Shown: positions 17,789-21,797 of the stretch, one piece after another
Layout of the letters: the number at the start of each line of letters is the position of its first letter
How positions within the stretch are numbered: position 1 is the stretch's first letter
Assembly (NCBI GenBank): GCA_965219345.1
Contig: OZ244732.1
Coordinates: 192,001-256,000, forward strand
Direction: 5' to 3'
Source: Nitrosopumilus sp.
GTDB lineage: Archaea; Thermoproteota; Nitrososphaeria; Nitrososphaerales; Nitrosopumilaceae
DNA length: 64,000 nucleotides
The notes under the pieces: generated by a model
Seen by the model: only the letters and a program-made list of their open reading frames with translations
The model's database searches: none
Told to the model about the DNA's origin: nothing
Program-made: the position numbers and the translations under genes

Positions 17789-18833
17789 GACAGTTTTCAT
17801 TGTGGACTTGCTTGCAATTTTTGCAATCTACCTTATTGTTAATCTAAGCTTAAACATGGAATTTGGATATGCTGGAATTCCAAATTTTGGAAAAGTTCTA
17901 GCAGTAGGTGCGGGTGCATTTGTTGCAGCATCAGTTCCAGGTAGGATTTTTGCCAATATTGCGGGAATTGAGGGAGATTACATTGAAAACAATTTGGCAA
18001 TAGTCTCTGAAATTAATGTCTGGCTAGTGGATAATACTGGAATAGGGTTTGTGGTATTCTTTTTGACACTAGGTATTGCTGCAGGAGTAGGTGGAGGTCT
18101 AGGGTTACTCACATCATTTCCTGCCATACGGCTACGAGGCGATTATCTAGCAATTTCATTACTAGCTTTTGGTGAAAGTATAAGAATAATTGGAAATAAT
18201 TTCACTCCATTAGTTGGCGGTACACTAGGAGTTCAGGTACCAGATCCATTATCATTTCTTCCAGGAGAACTACGATTCCCAGTAGCTACTATGGGATTAA
18301 TCCTAATCGCAATTGTTGTGTATGTGTATAGTGAAAAAATGATTCGTTCACCACTTGGAAGAATGCTTCGGGCAGTTAGAGATAATGAAGTAGCAGCTGA
18401 ATCGCTTGGAAAAAACACCACACAGATAAGAATTAAAATAATCATGGTATCTGCAGCACTTGCGGCCATAGCAGGTGCATTGTATGCATTTTATGTTGGT
18501 GGAACAATTGCCTTTGCGTACGATAGAGCAAGTTGGACTTTTTGGCCATTTCTTATGATTCTCATTGGAGGATTAGCAAATAACAAGGGAGTAATTATTG
18601 GAACACTTCTCTTTGTTACACTACGAAAATTCATCATATTCTTCAAAGATTCATTTCAAGAATATGTTCCATTTGATGTTGTTTGGCTTGACTTTTTGTT
18701 GCTTGGGATAATTTTACTTGCAGTTTTGTTATATAGACCACGAGGAATTTTTGTTGAAAAACCCACACCGACTATAGATGCAAATGATAAACCACCAAGA
18801 TTAAAGAAAATATTTAATTTCTTTTTTAAATAG
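17772..18833 (+). CDS. livM: BCAA ABC transporter permease
   Basis: RLRGDYLAI, SPLGRMLRAVRDNEVAAESLG, RPRG. Confidence 0.9.
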   Translation: MVLEAETVFIVDLLAIFAIYLIVNLSLNMEFGYAGIPNFGKVLAVGAGAFVAASVPGRIFANIAGIEGDYIENNLAIVSEINVWLVDNTGIGFVVFFLTLGIAAGVGGGLGLLTSFPAIRLRGDYLAISLLAFGESIRIIGNNFTPLVGGTLGVQVPDPLSFLPGELRFPVATMGLILIAIVVYVYSEKMIRSPLGRMLRAVRDNEVAAESLGKNTTQIRIKIIMVSAALAAIAGALYAFYVGGTIAFAYDRASWTFWPFLMILIGGLANNKGVIIGTLLFVTLRKFIIFFKDSFQEYVPFDVVWLDFLLLGIILLAVLLYRPRGIFVEKPTPTIDANDKPPRLKKIFNFFFK

Positions 18834-18895
18834 GTTCTCCTATACGAAATCGTCTCTTATCCTACTGCATGAAAGAATCAAATCTTGAATCATTT

Positions 18896-19026
18896 GGGGC
18901 AGAACCATGTCACGCAAATTTAACACCCACTTTGAATTACGACTCTGATGAATTTTGGCGATTTTGGAGAAAATTCAGATCATGCAAATTTAACGGGGCA
19001 AACTCCATGTCACGTATTTTTAACAG
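18896..19026. repeat. Subterminal direct repeats TCAYGYAWWTTTAAC x3
   Basis: tcacgcaaatttaac 18910, tcatgcaaatttaac 18980, tcacgtatttttaac 19010; longer ggggca...ccatgtcacg unit at 18896 and 18995. Confidence 0.7.
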
Positions 19027-19069
19027 TATCATAATTTTCTTCGTGTTAACTGCCGGGGCTTTTGGGATG

Positions 19070-19294
19070 TTACATAAACATTACATAAAGAATTTTTTTT
19101 GTAGAATTAACTAGAAAACTTACCTTTTGTCCCAAATTTAGAGTAAATTCTATTGTGTGTTCGGTTACTTGTAATTCAAGTAGGTGTGGCACAACGTTTG
19201 ATATGGAAATTATCAAGTTGTCAAGGTGAATTTGTTGTTCAACTGACAAATTTTTCCTTGTTTTCTTAAAATCATGTATAGGTTTTATGATCAT
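19070..19294 (-). CDS. Small RelE/ParE-like protein (putative toxin, 74 aa)
   Basis: MIIKPIHDFKKTRKNLSVEQQIHLDNLI...VSFLVNSTKKILYVMFM resembles the RelE layout; GAGGT RBS at 19300-19304. Confidence 0.5.
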   Translation of the reverse strand: MIIKPIHDFKKTRKNLSVEQQIHLDNLIISISNVVPHLLELQVTEHTIEFTLNLGQKVSFLVNSTKKILYVMFM

Positions 19295-19320
19295 ACTGAA
19301 CCTCAAAAAAATATAGTAAA

Positions 19321-19440
19321 TTATTTCTCCATTCCTTTCACATATTCTGTAAAAGAGTGATATTCACAGGATTCTATTTCACCTGACTCAACTTTGTCAA
19401 TGATCTCTTTTGGAGTCATATCTTTGAGAGAAATTGTCAT
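19321..19440 (-). CDS. 39-aa acidic microprotein, putative antitoxin
   Basis: MTISLKDMTPKEIIDKVESGEIESCEYHSFTEYVKGMEK; not in the ORF track; lies between the transposase stop and the RelE-like gene. Confidence 0.55.
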   Translation of the reverse strand: MTISLKDMTPKEIIDKVESGEIESCEYHSFTEYVKGMEK

Positions 19441-19447
19441 ATTATTT

Positions 19448-20581
19448 CTAAAAATATGTTGTATATATGTTAACCATACGTGCATTTTGGATTAAAATAA
19501 TCCATTTATTTTTACCCTTGATCTCAATACCTGCCCTACTAGCTGGTGTATCGCCGTCTAATCCCATATGTGGCCTGATGTAATTGTGGCATAGTTTGAT
19601 TCCAGTTATTGCAGGTGAATCATCAGATTTCAATCCTCTGAACATTTTTTCACGATCACGAAACTCTCCGTTAAGTCTCTCCTGAATGTTGTTGTTGTTT
19701 CTCTGGTTTTTGAAGTGAATCTCCCTGATATGCGTGCTGTCCTTGTGCAGGAAATTCTTTGGTGCAAACTCCTTCTTGAATGCGTCATTATACGCTGGTA
19801 AACCGTCTGTTACAAAAACAGAAGGCACTTTCTTTGCCGTCTCTTTTCCCATCTTCAAGAGGCTATGAGCATCATGCTTGAATTTTGAATCCGCAACCTC
19901 TTGAGATATCCAAAATCTGGTTTCATTGTCCATCATTGCAAAGAGGTATTTTCTGTCTCCCTTGACCTTGAGCCAAACCTCGTCAGCGTGCCATTCCTCA
20001 CCGACTTGTGGAGTAATCGTACTAAGATAATCATCCATGAGTTTGGTGTATTTCTTTATCCACTTGTAGATTGAAACATGGCTCATATCCACACCCTGAA
20101 GCTTCAGGAATTTTTGGACGCCTCTAAGGGATTCACCCGTGAAATACAACTGCATTGCAGAAGTGATAACCTGTGGTGAGGCATGCATCTTCTCAAATCC
20201 TAGATTGATTGAGAATTTCTTGTTACAACCCTTGCAGTAATATCGCTGGATTGAATGTGTCTTGTTCTTTCTAATTCCCTTTTTCTTGATGTTCTCAGAA
20301 TTGCAGAAAATACAACAGTCAGATTGTATCGGTTCTATAACAGTTTTTGATTTTACCTCCTGTCTTATCTTTAGTGAAATCTCAACTGCATGAATGTGTT
20401 TGCAACAAGTCCTTCTAAATCTATGATCCTCGCAGGAACAGGACCAGCCAGATTCAACAGCTATAACGTCATGCTGTCTGTCTCTGGATTGGGAGCTTAC
20501 GACATAGTGGTTTTCATCTATTCTTGTAATCTGGTCTTGTTTTTGTGTAATTTCTCTGCCTCTTTGCTCTCTGAAATTCAT
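19448..20581 (-). CDS. IS6-family DDE transposase with N-terminal SWIM finger and zinc ribbon
   Basis: SWIM CSCEDH..CKH; Zn ribbon CIFC..CKGC; HTH SLRGV..IYKWIKKY; DDE WHADE / VTDG / NNIQER; GAGGTG RBS; intact. Confidence 0.9.
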   Translation of the reverse strand: MNFREQRGREITQKQDQITRIDENHYVVSSQSRDRQHDVIAVESGWSCSCEDHRFRRTCCKHIHAVEISLKIRQEVKSKTVIEPIQSDCCIFCNSENIKKKGIRKNKTHSIQRYYCKGCNKKFSINLGFEKMHASPQVITSAMQLYFTGESLRGVQKFLKLQGVDMSHVSIYKWIKKYTKLMDDYLSTITPQVGEEWHADEVWLKVKGDRKYLFAMMDNETRFWISQEVADSKFKHDAHSLLKMGKETAKKVPSVFVTDGLPAYNDAFKKEFAPKNFLHKDSTHIREIHFKNQRNNNNIQERLNGEFRDREKMFRGLKSDDSPAITGIKLCHNYIRPHMGLDGDTPASRAGIEIKGKNKWIILIQNARMVNIYTTYF

Positions 20582-20618
20582 ACGTAATACACCTCAAAAA
20601 ATATTAGTGGGGGTTGAT

Positions 20619-20702
20619 CAAGAAAAGATGAGGGGTCAGAACTCTCCTGCTCATCACGGAGGTCAGAAGGAATGGAACTCATCATCCCCCTCATTTTTCT
20701 TG
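20619..20702 (-). ncRNA. Box C/D-type small RNA (C, D', C', D boxes; two guides; long terminal stem) in the transposase leader
   Basis: AUGAUGA-GUUCCAUUCCUU-CUGA-CCUCC-GUGAUGA-GCAGGAGAGUU-CUGA closed by CAAGAAAAAUGAGGGG / CCCCUCAUCUUUUCUUG. Confidence 0.85.
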
Positions 20703-20712
20703 TATTCATATC

Positions 20713-20777
20713 ATACTATACCTTGAACCCACACATATACTATACTTTTGATTCATATATGTGTATAAGTTATATAA
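20713..20777. promoter_or_regulatory. Divergent promoter region: palindromic TTATATAA and ATACTATAC direct repeats
   Basis: TTATATAA at 20770-20777, 28 nt before ATG 20798; ATACTATAC at 20713 and 20737. Confidence 0.5.
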
Positions 20778-20797
20778 GGGGTAATATACGCTGTTGT

Positions 20798-20941
20798 ATG
20801 AGTATGAAAGTGGATGGCGATTATTGGCGCCATGAGTGCAACAGATGCGGCAATATATGGTACAGTGTAAATGAATCTCCAAAAAATTGTGCTGGCATAA
20901 AATGCAAATCGCCGTACTGGAACAAGGAGAGGGTTCGCTAA
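20798..20941 (+). CDS. 47-aa C4 zinc-ribbon microprotein
   Basis: HECNRCGNIW...PKNCAGIKCKSPYW; TATA spacing fits a leaderless start; followed by hairpin acccaa-tcggtg-ttgggt (20963-20980). Confidence 0.75.
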   Translation: MSMKVDGDYWRHECNRCGNIWYSVNESPKNCAGIKCKSPYWNKERVR

Positions 20942-21081
20942 TATTGACTCAGAGAGAATCTAACCCAATCGGTGTTGGGTGACGACAGTTAACACGGATA
21001 AAATTTTCAGACAGGTGACTGTAAGTTAACAGAACCAGATTTAGCAAACGGCTTTATCCTAGTTTTTAGGCACTATCAAGC

Positions 21082-21696
21082 ATGACGTTAAAAAATGTAA
21101 AACCATCACTAAACAAGATTGCAAAATCTTTAGGCAATATTCAAGATTCAAGAGAATTTCTACTAAAAAATACAAGAGAAATAATTATTCTCTGTAGCAG
21201 ATCAATTATTGCCGTTCACAAAGGAGATCTAAAAACTGGGAAAAATAATTTAAAACAAGCAGACAAGTTGTTGAAAAAATACAAGAAAAAGGCGACAGGT
21301 GGACTTGGAAGATACTTAATCACCCCGGAACAAGAATTTGTCGAGGCTGCATGTCTTATTGCGATTGTTGAAAAAAAAGAAATTCCTTCAGATAAAAAGT
21401 TGTCAGTGATGCCAGAATCATATGTTTTAGGATTGTTAGATTGCATAGGTGAATTGAAAAGAACAGTATTTGACAGAATTAGAATTGGGAAGGTAGAGGA
21501 GGCCTCACGAGTTTTTGAAGTAATGGAAAATTTGTATCTTCATCTTTACACTTTTTCAATGTATGATAAAGTGGTAAAAGAAGCTAGAAGAAAAATTGAT
21601 GTAAATAGAATTCTAGTGGATGATGTCAGATCTGTAATTACAGAAGAAAAAAGGCGAACTGAACTAATCAGGACCTTGCAAAAACTAGAGAAATAA
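21082..21696 (+). CDS. Translin/TRAX-family protein
   Basis: QEFVEA, YVLGLLDCIGELKR, RRKID motifs. Confidence 0.85.
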   Translation: MTLKNVKPSLNKIAKSLGNIQDSREFLLKNTREIIILCSRSIIAVHKGDLKTGKNNLKQADKLLKKYKKKATGGLGRYLITPEQEFVEAACLIAIVEKKEIPSDKKLSVMPESYVLGLLDCIGELKRTVFDRIRIGKVEEASRVFEVMENLYLHLYTFSMYDKVVKEARRKIDVNRILVDDVRSVITEEKRRTELIRTLQKLEK

Positions 21697-21712: not shown

Positions 21713-21797
21713 TGCGGGCGATGGGATTTGAACCCACGAACTCCTGAGAGACTAGCCCCTCAAGCTAGCGCCTTTGGCCAGGCTGGGCGACGCCCGC
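21713..21797 (-). tRNA. tRNA-Leu(GAG)
   Basis: GCGGGCG acceptor, CTAGC-TTGAGGG-GCTAG anticodon arm, long variable arm, GGTTCAAATCC. Confidence 0.95.

Follow-up and report, generated by a model that had tools for sequence, protein, structure and literature searches.

A box C/D-type RNA within a coupled upstream reading frame of an archaeal IS6-family element, a candidate module for control of transposase translation

A 64,000-nt window of the genome of a Nitrosopumilus-like archaeon (contig OZ244732.1, positions 192,001 to 256,000) contains a member of the IS6 family of insertion sequences (IS) in which a complete box C/D-type RNA stands directly before the transposase gene. Judged by its sequence, this RNA is a genuine C/D-type module inside the element. 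It is wholly enclosed in a short open reading frame (ORF) whose ATG lies 7 nt before the stem and which passes through the stem, the four boxes, both spacers, a T-rich tract and a conserved leader before its stop codon overlaps the start codon of the transposase gene (Table 1). Here, we describe the anatomy and relatives of this RNA, the exchange of C/D and tRNA-like RNAs at the same position in sister elements, and the conservation of the reading frame, and we argue that the module may control translation of the transposase. The window is the whole stretch of DNA that was analysed; positions refer to it and features lie on its minus strand unless stated otherwise. Labels beginning with c, L and G denote copies, loci and genomes, respectively, G000 being the genome from which the window comes.

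The preliminary description of this locus, made from the sequence alone, had recognised a two-guide C/D RNA with four consensus boxes, guides of 12 and 11 nt and a stem of about 16 bp, and a renewed reading of the sequence together with a fold of the RNA confirms this layout. The C, D', C' and D boxes all agree with the consensus sequences RUGAUGA and CUGA (4/4), and the molecule has the features of an archaeal C/D RNA: terminal C and D boxes, internal D' and C' boxes separated by a short loop, spacers of about 12 nt and a terminal helix. In the paralogous copy c1035 the spacers measure 12 and 12 nt. The terminal helix of about 16 bp folds as two runs of 8 pairs separated by one bulged base, with a slight further extension, and is longer than is typical of archaeal C/D RNAs; the folding energy of the whole RNA is unremarkable (z = -1.7). 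A strict two-guide pattern occurs at three sites on the two strands of the 1.91-Mb genome and at none in each of five mononucleotide shuffles, and two of the three sites lie upstream of paralogous transposase genes. At gathering scores, no Rfam model matches the window RNA. With permissive settings, RF00095, the generic model of archaeal C/D RNAs, scores best and aligns end to end at 33 bits (gathering score 45, E = 1.9e-5). The stem ends 23 nt before the purine-rich, Shine-Dalgarno-like hexamer of the transposase gene, and the host genome encodes fibrillarin, Nop5 and L7Ae.

The transposase matches PF13610, the DDE domain of IS240/IS6-type enzymes, over residues 196-334 (E = 2.3e-14). Its N-terminal third bears a SWIM-like CxC...CxH motif and a CxxC...CxxC motif, the Cys and His residues of which are invariant in alignment A1. 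Apart from the DDE domain, the Pfam scan returned only a weak rve match and neither a Nop-like nor a RuvC/TnpB RNA-binding domain, in agreement with the earlier assignment of SWIM, zinc-ribbon and DDE parts with no visible Nop domain. The genome holds about nine full-length paralogues of this transposase and many fragments. Elements of the family end in inverted repeats of about 50 nt with GG tips and an internal TGT motif, and both ends can be recognised in sister copies. Three of these (c1009, c1730 and c1035) are units of 2.8-3.4 kb with passenger genes and target duplications of 7-8 bp, and in c1035 the C/D RNA lies about 2 kb inside the element. Sister copies of the same architecture thus bear out the earlier proposal that the RNA is part of a mobile element. 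The passengers between the inverted repeats of c1035 (locus L003) are genes for a BglII-like restriction endonuclease and an N6/N4 DNA methylase and a small MazE/AbrB-like gene; this copy is in effect a restriction-modification transposon. In the window copy, the divergent 47-aa ORF sits where sister elements hold an AbrB/MazE-like gene.

The preliminary description had also called the transposase intact, which is true of the gene and not of the element around it. The near end of the window copy is unchanged across a spanning contig (run X6), and the near and far inverted repeats are 80% complementary as a pair (I1). On a paralogous contig, an intact far-repeat tip corresponds to a loose end at 19033. 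Contigs from four sequencing runs aligned with this region reveal neither an empty site nor transcripts, and a search for RNA runs covering 19400-21100 returned none. In the window copy itself neither a clean far repeat tip nor a target duplication was found, and this copy may no longer be mobile, since only the inner part of its far inverted repeat is left.

Table 1. Features of the window element and of three sister copies. Coordinates are those of the window, except for the sister copies, which lie elsewhere in the genome.
Feature	Coordinates	Strand	Remarks
Box C/D RNA with closing stem	20619..20702	-	Read from sequence and fold; covariance model R1, 88.6 bits
5' stem half	20702-20686	-	Pairs with 20635-20619
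C box	20685-20679	-	Consensus RUGAUGA
D' spacer, 12 nt	20678-20667	-	
D' box	20666-20663	-	Consensus CUGA
Loop, 5 nt	20662-20658	-	
C' box	20657-20651	-	Consensus RUGAUGA
D spacer, 11 nt	20650-20640	-	
D box	20639-20636	-	Consensus CUGA
3' stem half	20635-20619	-	
Upstream ORF (P0001), 43 codons and stop	20578..20709	-	ATG at 20709; TGA overlaps transposase ATG as ATGA
Conserved 17-nt leader	20590..20606	-	Ends in Shine-Dalgarno-like hexamer 20595-20590, 8 nt before transposase ATG
IS6-family DDE transposase, 377 aa, intact ORF	19448..20581	-	PF13610; ATG at 20581
TATA-like A/T box	20735..20744	-	26-35 nt upstream of upstream-ORF ATG; by eye
Divergent small ORF, 47 aa	20798..20941	+	Two CxxC pairs (zinc-ribbon-like); no Pfam match
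Two small passenger ORFs downstream of transposase	19324-19440, 19073-19306	-	No Pfam match
Near inverted repeat	20977..21036	-	GG tip at 21036; family-wide end motif
Far inverted repeat, remnant	19026..19055	+	Inner part only; tip missing or replaced
Sister copy c1009	1007879-1010720		Target duplication exact, 8 bp; RNA-free
Sister copy c1730	1729074-1732317		Target duplication exact, 8 bp
Sister copy c1035 (L003)	1033406-1036785		Target duplication 7/8 bp

Two paralogous elements of G000, c1035 and c1717, carry a C/D RNA at the same position and with the same stem, enclosing quite different spacers; the RNA of c1035 is perfect and that of c1717 has one change in its C box. A covariance model (R1) built from the three IS-borne copies (window, c1035 and c1717) finds five matches in this genome, consisting of the three IS-borne RNAs and two conserved host C/D RNAs. 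The latter (C1:447042-447122 and C1:41065-41141) are present in most of the genus, roughly once in each genome. At E <= 0.01 the model matches 51 of 151 genomes of the genus, and its matches fall into two groups, the host C/D RNAs and a long-stem family. This family is found in 14 of the 151 genomes by R1 and in two more by a search with the leader, about 16 altogether. Its members stand before the starts of IS6 transposase genes, in tandem arrays that lack a transposase, and at solo loci. Genome G147 has two arrays (L102/L141) of about 7 units each with a period of 129 nt, G120 (L099) has four copies about 240 nt apart, and arrays are present in G113 (L146) and G121 (L108/L143) as well; in all of them the spacers differ from unit to unit. 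Some of the solo loci adjoin actin-like genes (by eye), which suggests integrated elements. Relatives of the RNA at such non-IS loci go part of the way towards the alternative named in the preliminary description, namely a chromosomal RNA captured by chance.

The terminal stem of this family covaries. Over 46 members, 94% of the stem cells are paired, a share that falls to 41-59% if the 3' partners are shifted 1-3 columns, and compensatory changes occur in 10 of the 12 stem pairs, the observed values being reached in none of 500 shuffles; fitting the alignment to the model gives the structure some advantage, yet the compensatory stems are plain in the raw sequences as well.

The 17-nt leader that separates the RNA from the transposase gene recurs at paralogous transposase starts in G000 and in 14 other genomes of the genus. 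Each of the nine leader-bearing starts in G000 is preceded by a structured RNA or its remnant (9/9): three C/D RNAs, three degenerate C/D RNAs, two tRNA-Leu(CAG)-like genes, which are 71% identical to the chromosomal tRNA-Leu(CAG), and one class-II-like tRNA-like RNA of 91 nt. Elsewhere in the genus the leader pattern has 26 matches, three of which looked like chance; 22 of the 23 that were examined precede a transposase-like start. All 22 starts are preceded by an RNA, which was classed by the model, by aragorn and by eye as C/D-like in 17 cases and tRNA-like in five. The slot before the leader is exchangeable between C/D and tRNA-like RNAs.

Outside this set of related copies the RNA is rare. 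The best 80 transposase homologues from other species, which span Nitrosopumilaceae, Nitrosotalea, Bathyarchaeia, Methanoperedens and others, were searched: neither the strict C/D pattern nor aragorn gave a match in the 300 nt upstream (0/80), and a stem-aware scan and R1 each gave one, at the same locus (L012). A degenerate C/D copy can be made out by eye at L037, and there are tRNA-like pieces at L015, L035 and L079. Thus, the expectation of the preliminary description that homologous elements would share boxes and stem around different spacers holds for the related IS copies and fails for 78 of the 80 closest other-species homologues, which have no C/D RNA. In a quickly computed maximum-likelihood tree (91 transposases), copies with the RNA are dispersed; the tree requires no fewer than three changes of state, and two of the three closest relatives of the window transposase lack the RNA. 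RNA and leader together have a mean column identity of 80% over the window copy, c1035 and c1717, and the window and c1035 transposases share 38% amino-acid identity. RNA and leader being far more alike than the transposases, the module has moved between IS lineages.

A further set of tRNA-like genes is associated with these elements. On C1 of G000, aragorn reports tRNAs of 83-91 nt with long variable arms and Ile or Arg anticodons at 334078, 903933, 951658, 969887, 1038939, 1235416 and 1718374. They adjoin IS6 transposase genes, transposase fragments or element ends, are 58-70% alike and unlike canonical tRNAs, and look like a mobile-element-associated class of tRNA-like RNAs.

The reading frame that encloses the RNA is conserved among the leader-bearing copies. 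In 24 of the 29 copies, of both the C/D and the tRNA type, the RNA is traversed by an ORF of 35-64 codons that has an ATG start and ends in an ATGA overlap, and in most copies the other two frames are shut within a few codons. The ORFs differ in length yet remain in frame, so that insertions and deletions have kept the frame. In the five exceptions (c1717, c1264, L155, L158 and L159) the transposase genes are all frameshifted, stopped or truncated. Within the long-stem family, the frame of the C box, which contains two Met codons, is open across the RNA in 12 of 16 IS-linked members versus 1 of 30 members from arrays and solo loci; these 30 rows come from about 14 loci, their array repeats and related copies being non-independent. 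Start overlaps of the ATGA type are common among the homologues (43 of the 80 loci, counted as RNA-free or unclassified), and an open frame of at least 35 codons precedes only four of these 43, among them L035 and L037, which hold a tRNA-like or C/D-like RNA. This pattern points to selection for an open frame, among copies that are related rather than independent.

The position of the presumptive promoter also differs between the two kinds of copy. By eye, a TATA-like box precedes the transposase ATG by some 25-30 nt in copies without the RNA, as would be expected of leaderless mRNAs, and in copies with the RNA the same spacing points to the ATG of the upstream ORF (by eye). The upstream ORF is therefore a putative leaderless start. 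Around the TATA-like box of the window copy a 9-nt direct repeat is present twice (20745-20737 and 20721-20713). By eye, every copy has a short sequence of its own, repeated 2-4 times in direct or inverted orientation around this box in the gap between upstream ORF and divergent gene (20713-20745 in the window); these repeats look like operators for the divergent small DNA-binding protein of the respective copy. A separate resemblance concerns the 5' half of the RNA. The first ten or so codons of the upstream ORF, which cover the 5' stem half and the C box, resemble the N-terminus of the transposase, and the two Met codons of the C box correspond in position to a Met-Met pair of several transposases (both by eye), hinting that the 5' half of the IS-borne RNA may derive from a duplicated transposase start.

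Among the roles proposed in the preliminary description were guided 2'-O-methylation and the selection of targets by a programmable guide. A working C/D guide pairs with rRNA or tRNA so that the target nucleotide lies 5 nt from box D or D'. The six spacers of the three IS-borne C/D RNAs were compared with the rRNAs, 5S rRNA and 52 tRNAs of the host. Their best scores are 9.5-10 of 11 positions, and 60 shuffled spacers reach 8-10 of 11 against the same set, so that none of the six has an rRNA or tRNA complement above the shuffles. The four spacers of host C/D RNAs score 11, 10.5, 10 and 8.5 of 11: a D spacer matches the anticodon region of an intron-containing tRNA-Met at 11/11, another D spacer matches tRNA-Leu(CAA) around position 34 at 10.5/11, and a D' spacer matches the large-subunit rRNA near position 2599 at 10/11. 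Genome-wide, a search with the six IS-borne spacers at no more than one mismatch returned matches at chance level only. The spacer cores that recur between loci have no complement in 5S rRNA, and two cores of 7 nt match small- or large-subunit rRNA at three sites, which we take as chance. One 8-mer core is in genomic excess; the excess stems from repeats in giant surface-protein genes and is irrelevant, because these repeats have the same sense as the spacer. By eye, the spacers are complementary neither to the inverted repeats nor to the insertion flanks of c1035.

Scans within the elements gave the self match and one internal site, the latter in the window copy only. There, the D' spacer pairs with 19327-19337 (transposase strand) by ten Watson-Crick pairs and one G-U pair of 11, at the 3' end of the first of the two small passenger ORFs. 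For this spacer, the score of 11, which is the trivial match to its own complementary strand, was reached in none of 40 shuffles, whose maxima had a mean of 8.99, and the 10.5 site was not tested singly; with six spacers and two strands tried, it is a weak lead. The search for guide complements in rRNA, tRNA, the genome and the insertion flanks thus found nothing above chance, and the idea of a programmable guide that selects targets is not sustained. The IS-borne spacers look orphan and seem largely free to drift, only boxes, stem and reading frame being held.

The reading that we favour, with a probability of roughly 0.5, is that an exchangeable structured-RNA module within a coupled upstream ORF gates translation of the transposase, and that the RNA probably does not guide RNA methylation. 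Boxes, stem, frame, ATGA overlap and leader are held while spacers, insert length and RNA class vary, which fits a module acting in cis better than a guide acting in trans. In such an arrangement an operator-flanked promoter would be followed by an ATG at or near the 5' end of the transcript, the RNA in frame, the T-rich tract, the leader and the ATGA overlap. Translation would begin at the 5' ATG of the upstream ORF, and most of the transposase would come from ribosomes that open up the RNA as they traverse it, stop at the overlap and start anew there. Should the nascent RNA fold before they arrive and be captured, by L7Ae, Nop5 and fibrillarin in the C/D version or by tRNA-processing enzymes in the tRNA-like version, this read-through route would be blocked or cut, and the T-rich tract may end many transcripts early. 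The module would then keep the transposase scarce and make its output depend on the RNA-protein (RNP) assembly or processing capacity of the host, a stable small RNA being a by-product. Co-transcription, the binding of these proteins and the direction of the effect are predictions from the arrangement of the sequences. Both steps have precedents in archaea, where, according to the available text of the sources cited here and below, L7Ae represses translation through kink-turns (k-turns) in leaders (PMC5539422, PMC6298567) and ATGA overlaps lead to coupling by termination and reinitiation (PMC6728339). Control of transposase translation fits best among the three roles that the preliminary description had offered; the likely route, a coupled and leaderless upstream ORF, was absent from it.

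Several observations weigh against this reading. The leader has a Shine-Dalgarno-like hexamer of its own, so that translation of the transposase independently of the upstream ORF is possible, and the A/T-rich leader could itself be a second promoter, for which its spacing to the ATG (about 22 nt, by eye) is short. The upstream ORF is kept in copies whose transposase gene is damaged, namely c1035 (stop at codon 6) and the deleted or truncated L131, L135 and L139, and conservation of the frame may in part reflect recent common descent. The long-stem family is also maintained where there is no transposase, in arrays and at solo loci, and so must have a role or a route of spreading beyond regulation in cis as well. 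Distant loci share spacer sequences, and a conserved target in trans, missed by our searches, could be the reason. Lastly, the degenerate far inverted repeat of the window copy means that this copy perhaps no longer moves.

Recurrence of spacers is one of several observations that would suit a passenger guide acting in trans, which 2'-O-methylates RNA of the host or of the mobile element and whose position merely borrows a promoter. Near-copies of the window D' spacer occur in L102 and L132, the spacers of 12 and 11 nt and the internal boxes are canonical, the host has the genes for the proteins of the small ribonucleoprotein (sRNP), and the D' spacer has its possible partner within the same element. 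Long-stem members exist away from transposases, and sister copies likewise carry tRNA-like genes. Such a guide nevertheless appears unlikely to us. Unlike the host C/D RNAs, the IS-borne RNAs have no complement above shuffled spacers in rRNA, 5S rRNA or tRNA, their genome-wide matches are at chance, and the recurring cores find nothing in rRNA beyond the two chance 7-mers; many members have degenerate C' and D' boxes and inserts of tens of nucleotides, which are unfit for a strict dual guide; and neither the frame that is open only in IS-linked copies nor the tRNA-like RNAs in the slot would be explained. A neutral hitch-hiker, which began as a captured C/D gene or as a piece of some mobile C/D-like repeat and is kept by descent and recombination without function for the element, would account for the patchy distribution on the transposase tree and for the degeneracy of many copies, and C/D-like miniature elements with flanking inverted repeats have been reported in Pyrobaculum calidifontis (PMC6009581). 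We rate this explanation as improbable, since it leaves unaccounted for the boxes and stem kept with compensatory changes while the spacers diverge, the frame kept across length variants in IS-linked copies only, the greater likeness of RNA and leader (80%) than of the transposases (38%), and the presence of two unrelated RNA classes in an identical slot.

Selection of targets or donors by pairing of the spacers with target DNA or element ends, in the manner of the bridge RNAs of IS110, is suggested by analogy: the region upstream of the transposase gene encodes a structured non-coding RNA whose two loops vary, and an evolutionary link between Nop5 and IS110 has been proposed (bioRxiv 10.1101/2024.06.21.599552). 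The probability of such a role must be very small. The transposase matches an IS6-type DDE domain and no Nop-like domain in Pfam, the RNA-free sister c1009 has a clean 8-bp target duplication, some sister copies have tRNA-like RNAs in place of the C/D RNA, and the spacers show neither complementarity to inverted repeats or c1035 flanks (by eye) nor genomic matches above chance, the scans within elements yielding the self match and the single site in the window copy. Equally remote is the view that the 43-codon ORF encodes a functional small protein and that the RNA features are incidental. Its open frame, ATG start and conserved position would agree with this view; however, the peptides resemble one another only at positions where boxes, stem and leader dictate the nucleotides, those of the C/D and tRNA types are unrelated, and the covariation of the stem acts at the level of RNA. 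Gating of transposase translation remains the reading we prefer. In a wider and more tentative form, which we regard as possible rather than probable, the IS6 elements of ammonia-oxidising archaea would have a switch made of a swappable RNA in a coupled leaderless ORF, in which a race between RNP assembly or tRNA processing and the first ribosome sets the amount of transposase; the elements would also be the vehicle, and maybe the birthplace, of a long-stem C/D family that has spread into arrays and solo loci.

Other repeats and derivatives of the element were noted. A 36-nt sequence beyond the permease gene (18832-18868) has five further copies in the genome at 94-97% identity. It opens a 74-nt stretch (18833-18906), both ends of which resemble IS inverted-repeat tips in opposite orientation, and this stretch may be a miniature derivative or a solo end of an IS. 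At L131 (G136 C1, about 647900-648360) the C/D RNA, the leader and the first 50 or so transposase codons are fused to the last 25 or so codons and the far inverted repeat, forming an internally deleted derivative that resembles a miniature inverted-repeat transposable element (MITE). Outside the near end of the window element lie a Translin-family gene (21082-21696, plus strand; PF01997) and then a tRNA gene (21713-21797, minus strand).

Parts of this arrangement have counterparts in known systems. In Pyrobaculum, C/D small RNAs (sRNAs) lie in the sense orientation at mRNA 5' ends and mostly have orphan guides: neither rRNA nor tRNA offers a target for 88% of the guides that overlap a gene 5' end in sense, and the discussion of that paper raises possible effects on mRNA stability and translation (PMC6009581). 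Compared with those sRNAs as described in the available text, the RNA reported here lies wholly in a separate short ORF that is coupled through ATGA to the downstream gene, the gene is a transposase in a mobile element, the slot accepts tRNA-like RNAs, and the stem is of about 16 bp. The MITE-like elements of P. calidifontis are likewise a multi-copy C/D-like family, with conserved flanking inverted repeats, and their authors propose that such elements spread C/D genes or modules (PMC6009581). They are short and non-autonomous and, in the available text, have no transposase assigned, whereas the RNAs of the present family are a fixed internal cargo of IS6 elements and also form tandem arrays; around the C/D RNA itself we found no target duplications. 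The leaders regulated by L7Ae (PMC5539422, PMC6298567) share with the present one a k-turn element upstream of a start codon and a possible binding of L7Ae. As far as the available texts describe them, the known cases, including the mRNA of L7Ae itself, have simple leader k-turns, whereas here a C/D RNA with two k-turns lies within an upstream ORF and the binding is putative.

Likenesses to other transposable elements are of two kinds. With IS6/IS26 (PMC7986276) these elements share an IS240-type DDE transposase, GG tips with an internal TGT at both ends of sister copies and at the near end of the window copy, and, in sister copies, 8-bp target duplications. The review of that family, in its available text, gives inverted repeats of 15-20 bp and treats passenger genes as exceptional, naming a single member that carries one; by comparison, the archaeal elements have repeats of about 50 nt, lengths of 2.8-3.4 kb, passengers that in one case form a restriction-modification pair, a zinc-finger N-terminus and the RNA slot. 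In bacterial IS200 and ISPpu9 (PMC4513863, PMC8450116, PMC5435999), as is proposed here, structure in the leader limits the transposase post-transcriptionally, and the leader can yield a stable sRNA. Those elements belong to another domain of life and use other classes of RNA with no C/D or tRNA-like fold, and their abstracts describe no ORF through the RNA. The bridge RNA of IS110 and the omega RNA of IS200/IS605 (PMC11208160; bioRxiv 10.1101/2024.06.21.599552) are also non-coding RNAs beside a transposase or recombinase gene. According to the available texts they base-pair with DNA of the target or donor, and a dedicated domain of the recombinase or nuclease binds them; here, neither the complementarity nor the domain was found. 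A paper on the thaumarchaeal mobilome describes IS-like transposons of one or two genes and, in its available text, does not mention sRNAs (PMC6563490). The preliminary description had known of no such RNA in IS6 elements, and our searches of the published literature, supplementary IS tables apart, yielded no report of a C/D RNA at a fixed position in IS6-family elements, of a C/D or tRNA-like RNA in a coupled upstream ORF of a transposase gene, or of a slot in which RNA classes are swapped. We rate the finding as a combination of known kinds, a C/D sRNA that overlaps an mRNA 5' end and the regulation of an IS through its own leader, and not as RNA-guided transposition.

If correct, the proposed control would represent a new form of self-limitation by a transposon, in which an RNA fold recognised by the host lies inside the very ORF that delivers ribosomes to the transposase start. 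The module is about 130 nt long and self-contained, and is therefore directly testable with reporters. It would also be a natural case of a complete C/D RNA that acts in cis on translation, and would help to explain the many orphan C/D guides of archaea. Finally, the C/D-type RNAs detected in this genus are mostly on or beside mobile elements, which bears on how guide-RNA genes originate and spread.

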